Source: Lama guanicoe | Lineage: Eukaryota | Direction: 5' to 3' | Length of the DNA: 64,000 nt | NCBI GenBank assembly: GCA_013239625.1 | Contig: MU053652.1 | Location: 4,019,902-4,083,901, forward strand | Shown here: in pieces, positions 1,543 to 59,333 of the stretch | Numbering within the stretch: the first letter of the stretch is position 1 | Layout of the letters: each line of letters opens with the position of its first letter | Made by a program: the position numbers and the translations under genes | The notes under the pieces: model-generated | What the model saw: only the letters and a program-made list of their open reading frames with translations | The model's database searches: none | Told to the model about the DNA's origin: nothing

Positions 1543-2275
1543 CTGTAATGGAGAAATCTTTGTGGTAACTTGGGAAAAGGGTGGAGATTACACTCTCATT
1601 TCATCCTCTTCCTCTCCTGGAAGCCACGGTTAGATCAAGGAGGCAACTAGGAGAGTCTCACCTGGGCTTTTCATTCAAGAAGTACCCTCCTCCAAGCCAA
1701 AATTAGAGGCTCAGTGCAGGACCAGGCTGAAGATTCCTACATAGAATCAGAAACTCTGGGTAAAGGGCCAGGATCATAAACAGATATGAAAGCTGCAATC
1801 TGTGCCTGTATGAGATCTACATAAACATGGATTAGAAGAACATCTAGCTGATTTCTAGAAAAACAAGATGGACAGAAACAAAAGAGGCAAACTAGATTGT
1901 GACCTAAGCTCTGTTATTAACTCACTGTATGATTTTGTATGATCTATTCTGTGGATCACAATTCCTCATCCATAAAAAAGAGGTCTTCAGCTCTAATGTT
2001 CCACAATTTTAGGATTGTCAAATAAGATAGCATTTCTACTTTAAATTGTATTAGTAGATTTTCTATGATGTTTTATGTATAAATTTATAATCCTATTTTA
2101 AAAGTATTTTTAATATAATCCTACCACCTAACCTCTTTAAGCATTTTTGGGGTATTTCCTACTGGGATATATTAATATATATGAATTAAAAAATTTATAA
2201 ATCTCAGCTCTTGTCACACACTCTGTCACATATTATGTAATCTTGAACATGTTACTTAACCTCTTTGTGCCTTAG

Positions 2276-14058: not shown

Positions 14059-14304
<246 letters not shown>

Positions 14305-17631: not shown

Positions 17632-18201
<570 letters not shown>

Positions 18202-19600: not shown

Positions 19601-21227
19601 AAGAAATTTTACAAATAAACACTGTAAATAAAGTTTAAAAGAATTTTAGCAAACAGACCATTTTGGGAAGTTAAGGACATACAAAGTAAATTATTCAGCC
19701 TTTAGAAATATCACCATGAAGGGCCATAACCATGTAGAGCCAAGAGACACTTCTCGGTGACATTGACAATTTTTTATTGAGATGATGGGACTTTAAAGGA
19801 TTTCAAGTTCTTAGTGTTTCACAGTCCTAATCTTCCATTGGACAAGCAATCTTGGTGACTGGGAGTAAAGAGCTGACACAATGATTAACAAAATCTCCCG
19901 TCTTAGGAAGGATTTCCTGGGAAAAAAAGATACGGTGGAATCAAGGAAAGGGCACTTCCTATGAACATCATAAAATAATCAATGCTTAGTAGAAGTGGTT
20001 TACTAGAGCACTGGGATGGCTATGATGCAAGCAAAAGACCTGAGGGTTTAAAATGGGGTTTGAAGAGAAACTTGGTTATCTCTAGCACTGCCCAAGCAGC
20101 CCCAATAACCTATTAAAGTCTACTTGGTAGTTACACTCCTTGAGAGAAGGGTTTCCCATGGCTAGCACAGTTTTACAGGAATTCCTCTTAAAGACATCCA
20201 ATTGTCTTTTCTGTGGATTTACAATCACTAAGCAATCTACCAGGAAACAGGTTCCCTAAGTTCCCTAAGGTTCCCTTTCCCCAACTAGGTGTACCTCCCA
20301 CTGTGGTTCTGGTCCTGCGAAGCACAGAGTCAGCAGCAAGTCTCAGGTTGTAATTCTTCAGTTGGCAAAAACTTTTAAAGCATGTGCACATAATGGTTTA
20401 ACTACTTGAGCTGTGAAGCTGACAATCATACAGGCTGTCTGTGTGATACATATGGGTAAGCAGGTCTCTTTTCAAGAGAAAGGAAGTATGTGAAAGGCTT
20501 GCCAAAAGGCAGCTAAGAGCACAATTCCTATCGCAGGTTCCGTAAGTATTCATGGTATCATTTCTCAGAAAAAAATACCTAAATGACTGATGTTTTCCAT
20601 GAGCTATTCCTTCCTAAAAATGCCGTAGTCAGTATCTCAAGGTTAGGTAAACTGTATATTTCAAACAAAAAAGACCCTTAAATTTTTGATTACTAAAAAT
20701 ATCTGGATAAAAATTTACCAGATCATTCTCCTTTGCAATTTGGCTGAGTTAACTTACAATGACTCTCCTCCCTTTTTATCACACTCTGCATCCAATTTAT
20801 TTAGCAAATCCCACTGGTCCTACCTTCACTTCTTGTCACCTCCACTGTTTACCCAGCTAATCCACGCTACCACTTTCTGTTGCTGGAAATACTGAAAGAG
20901 CTTCCTATCGTCCCTATGACCACTCAAGCTCCAGGAGTGTTTTCCTCATACAACAGCCGGGGTAATTTTTAAAAACATAAGTCAGGTTTTGTCAGTCACC
21001 TACTCAAAACATTCCAATGGCATCATTTGTATCCAGAATAAAATCTAAAGTCCATAGCATGGCATATAAAGTCACCTGCTACCTCCTTGCTGCCTCTTAT
21101 TCTCAGTGGCATCTTTTCTGTTCCTCAAACACATCAAGGACGTTTCTACTTCATGATCTTTAACTAACCATTCTCTCTGAATAGAATGCTCAGATGGCTT
21201 GCTCCTTCAATTCATTCAAGTTTTGTT

Positions 21228-21689
21228 TTTTTTTTAAACAGACAAGCACAGAGTCACTGTTGTGGTTAGAAGTTGGCAGCATGGGAAAGGGGAGGAACAG
21301 ATGGGGAATTGAGGTGTCGTTAAATACAGCCCCCCCCCACAGCAGTGCCTGGGGGAGACTTGGTCTGCTTCAACCCAAGAGGAATCAGGAGGTCAAAAGT
21401 GGTTTGGGAAGCCAGAACCATCAGGGATGGAGGGAGGAGGAGGAAGGTCCAGGGTGGGGTTGGGGGCTGTTTGGCAACTAGGGTGAAGGGCCTGCCCTCT
21501 CCCTGCTGGGATCCCCCTAGCCCTTCTGGTCTGGAAGGAAGCAAGCAGTCTGCAACCCCCATGGGCAGGTCTGGGGCTGCCAGATGCTTTAGGCAGGGGG
21601 CTGTAGGGGTTCACAAAGGCTTGCCCTCCAGGGAGATGATTGCGCTGCCCCCACCCCACCGGCTTCTCTGCCAGAATGCAGTGGTCCTT
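21228..21689 (-). pseudogene. CFL1: CFL1 (cofilin-1) processed fragment: last codons, 3'UTR and poly(A) (3' part of the chimera)
   Basis: Translates KDHCILAEK..(frameshift)..GSAIISLEGKPL* (TGA 21613-21611) versus cofilin-1 KDRCTLAEKLGGSAVISLEGKPL*; 3'UTR ending CTGCCAACTTCTAACC...GTGACTCTGTGCTTGTCTGTTT then A-tail. Confidence 0.88.
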
Positions 21690-21785
21690 AAAAATATGAA
21701 ATGGTTCAGGAGTTTCTGTGTCATCCTTGCACAGGGGCTATGCTAATCTCAGTATTTTTAGCATACGTGCTGCTGAAGCGAGCAC
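21690..21785 (-). pseudogene. RNU6: U6 snRNA retrocopy (5' part of a chimera), degenerate
   Basis: Reverse complement GTGCTCGCTTCAGCAGCACGTATGCTAAAAATACTGAGATTAGCATAGCCCCTGTGCAAGGATGACACAGAAACTCCTGAACCATTTCATATTTTT aligns end to end with U6, with an internal deletion and a broken ACAGAGA box. Confidence 0.93.
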
Positions 21786-22644
21786 TCATTCAGGTTTTTG
21801 TTCAGATGTTCCCTCCTCAAAGATACCTTCTTTGATCACTCTAACTAGATAGGTTCCTCAATGTCCTCACCCTTCTGCTATTCTTCAGTATTAGGCACTA
21901 ACTGACAATAACTGTCTACTTAGTAACTGTTTCCCACACTAGAATATAAGCAAGAAAGTAGGCATTATTGTTCACTGCTATTTCTTCAGCCAATTAGTAC
22001 TTAGCACAGAGCAGAGCAAGTATTCAATACAAATTTGCTAAGTAGTGAATGAACATTCCGGATTCAATGATTAGTTGAGCCTGCTCTTTCCTTAAATTTC
22101 ATTTTACATGCCCTGTGACACTACCATCCAAGGTTGAGTAATTTAACATTTTCAAAGCTGTTCTGAACATGTCCCTTTCTGGACCATTTAGTTTAGTCAT
22201 ACATTTTCTGCTAAGAAGAGCACAGACAGTTGAAAGATGGCTCTTGGCTAGTGTCAGTGGCAGATACTAGTGCTACTAGCAACACCTGCAAAAGTAGGTC
22301 TAATCTCACCACAGAAGCCAGGCTGATCCTTTTAAAACAAAAAATCATCCTTTTAAAACAGAAGTCAGAAATCCTATAATGGCTCCCTATTCCTCTCCAG
22401 ACACAATGAGGAGTTCTTACCATGGCCCCCCATAAGATCTGGCTCATTACCTCTGACCTCATCTTCCATTCTTCCCTGCCCCATGCTCTTCCGTTCCAGC
22501 CACACTGGCCTCATTGCTGCTCCTCAGACTAGGCACACTGGCACCTTAGGGCATTTGCTCTGGCTGCTGTTCCCTTGTCTTGAAATGTTCTTCATCTAAA
22601 AGTCAACATGGCTAATTCCTTCAGATTTGCTCAACCATCACCTT

Positions 22645-22762
22645 TTTTTTCTTTTTGGTTGGATTTTTATTTTATTTTATTTTAATAGAGGTGCCGAGGA
22701 TTGAACCCCAGATCTTGTGCATGCTAAGCATGCGCTCTACCACTGAGCTATACCCTCTACCC
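22645..22762 (-). mobile_element. tRNA-Ala-derived SINE (camelid vic-1-like)
   Basis: Reverse tRNA head and T-rich tail; perfect 13-bp TSD CAACCATCACCTT at 22632-22644 and 22763-22775. Confidence 0.9.
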
Positions 22763-24698
22763 CAACCATCACCTTCTTAATGAGGCTTATTAAGCCTCAT
22801 TAAAATTATAACCCTCTCTTTAAAATTATAACCCAGCACTCTTGATCCTCATTACCATGCTCTATTTTTTCTTTTATCCATGGTGTTTTCGTCTTCTAAC
22901 ACACTATAAATTCTACTTATTATATTTATTATTCTTCTTCTCAGTAAAATATAAACTCCATGGGGGCAGGAATCTTTTCCTATTTTGTGCACTGATCCTA
23001 AGCATGCAGAATAGCACCTGGCATATAGTAATCACACAATACATATTTGTGATGGGAGGTAAAGAGGCTCTTGGATTTTATCCTGAGAGATTACTTATGT
23101 CTGGGCTGCCTTTGGAGGAAAGATTAACATCACAATTTGAAGTTAATCTAAAAAAGCATGAGAAGATAATAGTATAACACATAGGAAAACAAGAACAAAA
23201 AAACTGGACTGGAAGTCAAAAAACACGGATTTTGGGCATCAATTTCATTTTGGAACCAACGGCTATGACTGAACAATGCACTTAAGCTTTAGAGTTTCCC
23301 AATCGAAAATCAGGAATAAAAATAATGCCTCATGGGATGGTCAAGAGGTCAAAATGAGATAAAGTAAAGGTATAAAAATCACATGATTGCATTTGGAATT
23401 ATTTTTATTTTAGAGCTTCTTGAGGGTTTAGAAGAGAAAATTTCTTCCCCTTTCCCTTATACAGAAGATTTCTCTTTAGGGCTCAGAGCATGACTACCTC
23501 CCTTTAAGCCTTTTCCATCTGGGGGCTCTATAAGTGGACTAATCCAGAAAAGGAAAATCATGGGCTAGATAGTTTTAGAAATATTAATATCTTTGACCAT
23601 TTAATAAAGGGGCAGTATGGTATATAAGTGGAACTTAAAAAACAAAGACAAACAACCCCCTCCACCAAAACCAAAATAGAAAACTAAATTAATTATTCTT
23701 TATAAGCAAAATATCACAGTAAAGACAGAGTAATGGAGCCATGCCACTCAAAAACCTCGAGGGTAGCAATAGGCTCTGGTAGGTTGTTTTCACAGCTATT
23801 TTTAATAACAGAAGAATAGAGCACAGAGTTAAAAAGAGAAACCATTTAAAATAGACACCCAACAGGTTCTCAGTATATCAACCGATCCTTACCTGGCCAT
23901 GCTGAAGCTCAATCAGAGCAGCCCTCAGTGGAGATGAAAGCATGCTTTGCTTGAGCCATTTACCCAGAGAGAAATACAGTTGTGCCAGAAAAATGCCAGA
24001 AAAATTTAAAACCAGAGTGAAAGTCACAATGAGACATACTTTGGTAAGTCTGAAAAGAAATAAATAACACTTCTATTAACTATTACTTGGGCAACTTAGT
24101 AGGACCGAGTGTTATGTTGGATTGGAAAATTTTACGGTGGATATAATAAAATTAGAGAACCAAAGTGACAGATTTTCTAAGTTTGAGGAACACATGCTAC
24201 TGAATCGCTTGTCACACCTATGGATGCAATTACTATAGTTTGGAACATATGTTAAGGGGAGATCTAGACCCATGAAAGAGGGAGAGAAAAGGGAAACCAC
24301 CATATTTGACAGTCAGTCCTAAGCAGTGTTCTCATCCCAGCCCATAGATTTTCCTCCCTTGACTTGTTTCCTTGGACCAACCTACTTATTTCATCTTCAT
24401 GGTAAAGTCAAATATTCCACAAATACTGACTAGCAATACTGACTCACATTTGTTGCTTCCTTTTTGTAGTTTTGAGTCTACCGAGCTCTTAATCCTATAT
24501 ATAAAGATAAAATGGCTTAGAGTATAAGTAGGTATCAAGCTTAGGTGGAAAACAAGAATCATTTGAAATGATTAAGTTGAGATGAAGAAGTTTTACCGAT
24601 TCCATAAGCACAGGCCATAAGGCTTGTAAGTGAACAGCTCTGCCAGGACAGTCATGTTTAGGATGACTGGTGACCCTGCTATTTCTTCTTCTGGCTTA

Positions 24699-24857
<159 letters not shown>

Positions 24858-24870
24858 TTAAAAACAGAAG

Positions 24871-59197: not shown

Positions 59198-59333
59198 AGG
59201 GGAAAGGGTGTAGCTCAGTGGTAGAGTGTGTGCTTGGCATGCATGAGGTCCTGGGTTCAATTCCTAGAACCTCCATGAACATAAGTAAATAAACCTAATT
59301 ACCCACCCCCCCAAAAAAAAAAGATTTAAAAAA
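59198..59333 (+). mobile_element. tRNA-Ala-derived SINE (camelid vic-1-like)
   Basis: gtgtagctcagtggtagagtgtgtgcttggcatgcatgaggtcctgggttcaat; shares aataaacctaattacc with the 14661 copy; GTTATC duplicated on both sides. Confidence 0.88.

Follow-up and report, generated by a model that had tools for sequence, protein, structure and literature searches.

Structure of the locus and its host gene

The window, i.e. the whole stretch of 64,000 nucleotides of Lama guanicoe DNA that was analyzed, contains on its minus strand a U6 snRNA retrocopy that passes, without a change of orientation, into a 5'-truncated cofilin-1 (CFL1) mRNA copy. Read on this strand, the region comprises a flank, one copy of the target-site duplication (TSD), U6, the CFL1 piece, an A-run, the second TSD copy and the other flank. 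The unit and its surroundings comprise the following features, listed in the direction of the minus strand:

24759..24863, minus strand: host exon upstream of the insertion, AdoHcyase_NAD model positions 85-119
21803..21865, minus strand: upstream half of the split old interspersed repeat, from flank and paralogue alignments
21786..21802, minus strand: 5' TSD copy AACAAAAACCTGAATGA, directly adjoining nucleotide 1 of U6
21690..21785, minus strand: U6 snRNA retrocopy, model positions 1-105, which has lost 8 and 3 nt internally, carries 13 substitutions and ends in five T
21611..21689, minus strand: remnant of the cofilin-1 coding region, K144 codon through stop, with the frame shifted by a 7-nt insertion in a G-run
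21236..21610, minus strand: cofilin-1 3'UTR piece of 375 nt, ending ~122 nt before the 3' end of five of the six other retrocopies
21228..21235, minus strand: remnant of the poly(A) tail, untemplated in the parent gene; the A-run covers 21226-21235 and its final two A are common to the TSD
21212..21227, minus strand: 3' TSD copy AACAAAACTTGAATGA, sharing two A with the A-run
21100..21211, minus strand: downstream half of the split interspersed repeat, from paralogue alignments
~17902..18006, minus strand: host exon downstream of the insertion, AdoHcyase_NAD model positions 119-153, bounds approximate

The earlier note had assigned the host gene to AHCYL2, and this assignment holds: the last exon of the host (14149-14286) is identical at 38 of 38 positions to 3gvp (adenosylhomocysteinase 3, that is, AHCYL2) and at 38 of 41 positions to 3mtg, and AdoHcyase exons on the minus strand flank the insertion. 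The unit lies in the sense orientation in an intron of ~6.75 kb, between the exons matching AdoHcyase_NAD positions 85-119 and 119-153.

The U6 part

The match to the Rfam U6 family (RF00026) covers 21690-21785 on the minus strand and is not truncated (63.7 bits with a gathering threshold of 44; E-value 4.5e-15; model positions 1-105). A Rfam scan of the whole 64-kb window recovered the same match, which is the sole snRNA match there. The earlier note, which had proposed the scan of 21690-21785, had read the copy by eye as running from U6 nucleotide 1 (21785) to TTTTT (21690), and the Rfam coordinates are identical. A sub-threshold Rfam match to tRNA was rejected as a gene, with no tRNA found by ARAGORN in 20000-24000.

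Alignment to a canonical U6 of the same genome (L014) gave 83 matches, 13 mismatches and 11 gap columns, the latter representing the deletions of 8 and 3 nt. It begins at nucleotide 1, and the copy terminates in ATATTTTT, that is, in five T. The top U6 copies of the genome reach 118.8 bits (48 U6 matches were scored, from a far larger number of candidates). U6 chimeras are routine in this genome, since at seven of the 12 U6 loci with the highest scores, U6 is followed by a piece of one common repeat that is 5'-truncated to a varying extent.

The cofilin-1 part and its parent gene

The 454 nt next to U6 (21689-21236) have twelve matches in the 2.05-Gb assembly of the same genome, the window locus included. 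The best of the other matches is an intron-containing gene (L002; 84%). Exon 2 of this gene is identical to solved cofilin-1 chains at 103 of 103 positions, the coding part of its last exon is identical to residues 131-166 of 1q8g (36 of 36), and cofilin-2 and destrin gave clearly lower scores against its exons. These comparisons support the identification of the parent gene as CFL1, which had been expected to be the best match and is the closest one in a search of the animal's own genome. The piece matches the parent gene at 391 of 445 aligned bases, with 22 gap columns; it lies entirely within the last exon of L002 and spans no exon-exon junction.

The coding remnant is split over two frames because of the 7-nt insertion in the G-run. 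Frame 1 from 21689 gives KDHCILAEKPVGW (KDHCILAEK), and frame 2 gives GGGSAIISLEGKPL / GSAIISLEGKPL and then the stop, a TGA at 21613-21611. The two peptide pieces reported in the earlier note are both real, but they do not share a single frame, being divided by this insertion. Of six independent CFL1 retrocopies, three carry extra G-rich sequence (GGGGTGG motif) at one and the same place. A shared odd source of the window copy and the retrocopy L005, both with extra G-rich sequence, was considered and rejected, as the tree is star-like and has no supported clade.

The 375 nt of 3'UTR (21610-21236) are followed by ten A (21235-21226), in agreement with the A-tail previously noticed after ~375 nt of CFL1 3'UTR. 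The parent gene has TTTAGTTCTG at this place, hence the tail is not gene-encoded. Five of the six other CFL1 retrocopies (L003 and L005-L008) reach the distal 3' end, whereas the window copy falls ~122 nt short of it; the sixth (L004) ends ~17 nt before the 3' end of the window copy. A scan of the CFL1 piece for 13 poly(A)-signal hexamers found none but TTTAAA, which is made by the tail itself. The short 3' end may reflect a proximal end that is seldom used, a decay fragment that was adenylated, or a later deletion.

U6 promoter elements lie upstream of the gene and external to it, and retrocopies are made without them. Judged from its sequence, the U6-CFL1 copy should be inert, since it has no U6 promoter and only 23 frameshifted CFL1 codons; it would also pose no threat to the host transcript, because, save for the tail-made TTTAAA, it carries none of the 13 scanned poly(A) signals into the intron.

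The junction

Alignments to L002, L003 and L006 place the beginning of CFL1 homology at 21689, the base next to the U6 T-tract. The last exon of L002 starts with GGATCAAGC, and the homology of the window copy starts 41 nt further, at AAGGACC. The junction therefore corresponds to nucleotide 42 of the last exon, where the K144 codon (1q8g numbering) begins, and its proposed position within the CFL1 coding region is borne out. An origin of the junction at a splice site was rejected, the break being 41 nt into the last exon.

The junction has neither microhomology nor extra bases, and the break falls on a C|A step inside the exon. Its position is uncertain by at most 2 nt: AAGG is preceded by TC in the parent gene, where a change of C to T would leave no trace, and as many as two of the five T may in principle have come from CFL1 by mutation. 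The junction sequence contains no A-tract between U6 and CFL1. The search for other U6-CFL1 junctions, which the earlier note had recommended, revealed no U6 at any of the 11 other CFL1-like loci of this genome, and the junction has no second copy in it.

Decay and age of the two halves

In the U6 half, 13 of 96 aligned bases are changed relative to L014, and one of six assessable CpG dinucleotides (counted by eye) is kept; in the CFL1 half, 54 of 445 bases are changed and two of seven parental CpG are kept. By these counts, the two halves look equally old. The distance of the CFL1 piece to the present parent gene is 0.143 (K2P), and its maximum-likelihood end branch is shorter (0.094), because the parent lineage itself has changed. 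The neutral rate in mammals is ~1-2.2e-9 substitutions per site per year. With this rate, the end branch would place the insertion at roughly 40-90 million years ago.

Target-site duplication and the paralogous empty site

As described before, one pair of direct repeats encloses the whole unit. The repeats are 17 and 16 nt long, with 15 identical positions, one mismatch and one indel, and both copies abut the insert. Among random pairs of 40-nt windows at equal spacing, 115 of 19,935 scored as high, and with the constraint that the repeats abut the insert this was true for 24 of 20,000. A separate TSD was found neither for U6 alone (best local score between the flank and the post-U6 sequence 5.5; null mean 6.7) nor for CFL1 alone (best score between the U6 end and the 3' flank 8.0); the enclosing pair scores 12.5. 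The nick that can be deduced on the plus strand is TTTTTGTT/CAGATG, with T-rich sequence 5' of the nick; the target TTGTT/CA matches the L1 endonuclease consensus TTTT/A only loosely.

The 56 nt upstream of U6 match L026, the sole paralogue recovered by a search of the genome with the 5' flank; a direct genome search with the 3' flank retrieved no paralogues. In L026, the 5' flank corresponds to 1501-1556 and the 3' flank to 1544-1665, with an overlap of 13 nt at the duplicated sequence. A genome search seeded with L026 produced 17 matches of 67-85% identity, L026 and the window included. In an alignment of 15 copies of the flanking repeat, the family continues through the site without a break, and the two TSD copies of the window occupy identical columns. 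The empty site is thus demonstrated by paralogous repeat copies within the same genome, and, judging from these alignments, an element of an old, dispersed and diverged repeat family was interrupted cleanly and once by the insertion.

These observations bear on two explanations that do not involve a single insertion. Two independent events might by chance have brought a U6 pseudogene next to a processed CFL1 pseudogene with a truncated 5' end, as both kinds of pseudogene are common here (11 other CFL1-like matches; 48 U6 matches scored). However, U6 and CFL1 are joined without a gap and in one direction, U6 is not followed by an A-tract, the only repeat pair encloses both parts and no further pair belongs to either, and the paralogous repeat copies point to one clean interruption, which makes this explanation very improbable. 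We regard as extremely improbable an assembly artefact or a DNA-level rearrangement that joined unrelated pieces of U6 and CFL1 pseudogenes. Neither the matched repeat pair nor the paralogous empty site would be expected in this case, and 20 of the 24 listed public sequencing runs contain 0.91-1.00 of the 31-mers (76 sampled) from the 801-nt stretch 21100-21900; these runs come from eight studies with five organism codes, and 13 of them are flagged as possible sources.

The sole TSD pair, the lack of a TSD or A-tract specific to either half, the paralogous empty site and the similar decay of both halves argue for one L1-type event, in line with the single retrotransposition event suggested by the earlier note.

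Possible origin of the hybrid template

Very probably, one LINE-1-type event of target-primed reverse transcription (TPRT) copied a U6-CFL1 hybrid template tens of millions of years ago. The template would have comprised a complete mature U6, from nucleotide 1 to the five terminal U, and the 3'-terminal 454 nt of a polyadenylated cofilin-1 mRNA. The endonuclease would have nicked the plus strand at the site given above, within the old repeat in the AHCYL2 intron, and the T-rich 3' end would have primed on the A-tail. Reverse transcription would then have copied the CFL1 3'UTR, next the 79 nt of coding sequence and lastly U6 up to its nucleotide 1, and repair of the second strand would have produced the TSD of 16/17 bp.

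The imperfect TSD, the loose L1 target and the atypical 3' end without a hexamer are points against this reading, as are an empty site seen through paralogous copies alone and a CFL1 piece confined to one exon, which bears no mark of splicing. An ordinary mRNA template fails to explain the 3' end of the CFL1 piece, because this end is at an atypical site that lacks a poly(A) hexamer.

The hybrid may have been formed by either of two routes. Before reverse transcription, U6 with its 2',3'-cyclic-phosphate end may have been attached by an RNA ligase to the 5'-OH of a cleaved CFL1 mRNA. Somewhat less than an even chance is given to the other route, in which the L1 RT switched template from the CFL1 mRNA to the 3' end of U6 and no pre-ligated RNA existed. 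Template switching is the classical model for U6 chimeras (PMC4476161, main text), fits a full-length U6 with a complete U-tract, and is consistent with the same architecture, U6 followed by a 5'-truncated common repeat, at the seven U6 loci mentioned above. On the other hand, U6/L1 RNAs arise independently of retrotransposition and RtcB ligates U6 to other mRNAs, according to the main text of PMC6789731, and the junction has no microhomology or untemplated base, although such a junction is nonetheless compatible with switching. The five T, the missing microhomology and the absence of extra bases taken together are compatible with ligation and switching alike. We lean slightly to ligation, at little better than even chances.

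A more specific proposal is that the CFL1 part is an internal mRNA fragment with two non-canonical ends: a cleaved and re-adenylated decay intermediate, whose 5'-OH was ligated to U6, so that the copy would be a footprint of this ligation and the GGGGTGG spot a hot spot of RT slippage. The 5' break after C and before AAGG in the last exon and the adenylation ~122 nt early without a hexamer would agree with such a fragment; as a whole, this proposal seems rather unlikely to us.

Relation to known U6 chimeras

U6/L1 chimeric pseudogenes were reportedly described by Buzdin in 2002 and by Gilbert in 2005. 'U/pseudogene chimeras' with flanking TSDs are a named class, which the main text of Doucet et al. 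2015 (PMC4476161) attributes to template switching, citing Buzdin et al. 2003 and Garcia-Perez et al. 2007 for U6/processed-pseudogene chimeras of mammals. The main text of Moldovan et al. 2019 (PMC6789731) states that the major form of U6 ends in five U and that RtcB can join U6 with a 2',3'-cyclic phosphate to L1 or other mRNAs with a 5'-OH prior to retrotransposition.

The window copy resembles the U/pseudogene chimeras in having a full-length U6 at the 5' end, a direct fusion in the same orientation to a 5'-truncated polyadenylated mRNA copy, an A-tail and one enclosing TSD. It differs from those in the main text of PMC4476161 by its cofilin-1 partner, its non-human host and the non-canonical 3' end of its mRNA piece, and it would be outside the filter given there (at least 97.5% identity), because its U6 is only ~86% identical to the gene. 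The U6/L1 chimeras, as presented in the main text of PMC6789731, agree with it in their U6 part, in being joined at the U-tract, in the repeat pair and in the mechanisms proposed for them (a template switch or ligation by RtcB); their partner on the 3' side is L1 RNA, where the window copy has a cellular mRNA. The window copy is also unlike the U6/repeat form that dominates the young copies of this genome, as seen in the best U6 loci. The ordinary CFL1 processed pseudogenes of the same genome (L003-L008) have the source mRNA and the type of decay in common with it, and L003 is likewise 5'-truncated; the window copy is set apart from all of them by its U6 and from five of the six by its short 3' end.

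The main texts of PMC4476161, PMC11838501 and PMC6789731 contain no mention of CFL1 or cofilin. Likewise, among the papers listed in the literature searches, none combines U6 chimeras with cofilin and none, by title and abstract, deals with a copy at the AHCYL2 locus; U6/mRNA partners may be listed in supplements and in the tables of Buzdin 2003 and Garcia-Perez 2007. The class of chimeras is thus already described, and the U6-CFL1 copy itself is unmentioned in the literature searched.

In summary, this U6/mRNA chimera of a non-model mammal is a clean case, bracketed in full, which in itself matters only a little. If its orthologues are compared, it could serve as a phylogenetic marker free of homoplasy. 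It also adds one more data point on the sites at which U6 and mRNAs are joined, here an exonic C|A step without microhomology, which bears on the choice between ligation and template switching.

U6 copies elsewhere in the genome

The survey of U6 copies covered the 12 best-scoring U6 loci of the guanaco's own genome (L013-L024). In seven of these (L014, L017, L018, L019, L021, L022 and L023), U6 is joined without a gap to a piece of a single common repeat, 5'-truncated to a varying extent and terminating in an A-tail; these seven loci are young U6/LINE-type chimeras. At two others, L016 and L020, the U6 copy carries just a poly(A) tract and is bracketed by flanking repeats.

The window also contains two tRNA-like Rfam matches, which are probably heads of tRNA-derived SINEs:

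22686-22757, minus strand: tRNA-like match, 28.8 bits, just below the gathering score of 29
59204-59275, plus strand: tRNA-like match, 42.3 bits

ARAGORN identified no tRNA in window positions 20000-24000.

Cofilin-1 retrocopies and the parent gene

The 3' end of the cofilin-1 (CFL1) piece of the chimeric window copy, at 21236, lies about 122 nt short of the end used by the five other retrocopies, and that of the retrocopy L004 (at about 1495) about 140 nt short of it. No poly(A)-signal hexamer was found upstream of the early end at window position 21236.

At a spot where the parent gene reads CTGGGGGGC, three of the six CFL1 retrocopies covering it contain additional G-rich sequence that includes a GGGGTGG motif:

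Window, about 21650-21665, minus strand: G-rich extra sequence
L005, about 1525-1545: G-rich extra sequence
L007, about 1490-1515: G-rich extra sequence

The tree of CFL1 copies is star-shaped, with no clade supported; the extra sequence may have arisen by slippage at the same spot more than once, or the copies carrying it may have had an unusual source in common.

Another 5'-truncated cofilin-1 retrocopy, L003 (about 1960-2000, minus strand), has its start a few bases into exon 3 and continues across the spliced junction of exons 3 and 4; it is the youngest of the cofilin-1 retrocopies. The intron-containing parent gene, L002, has CTAGCT (1501-1530), whereas the window copy, L003, L005 and L006 have CTGGCA, and among the retrocopies only L003 has the 3'UTR GAAGG in common with the parent. 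Judged from these sequence differences, the parent cofilin-1 lineage was altered after most copies arose, and therefore distances to the present-day gene overstate the age of the copies.
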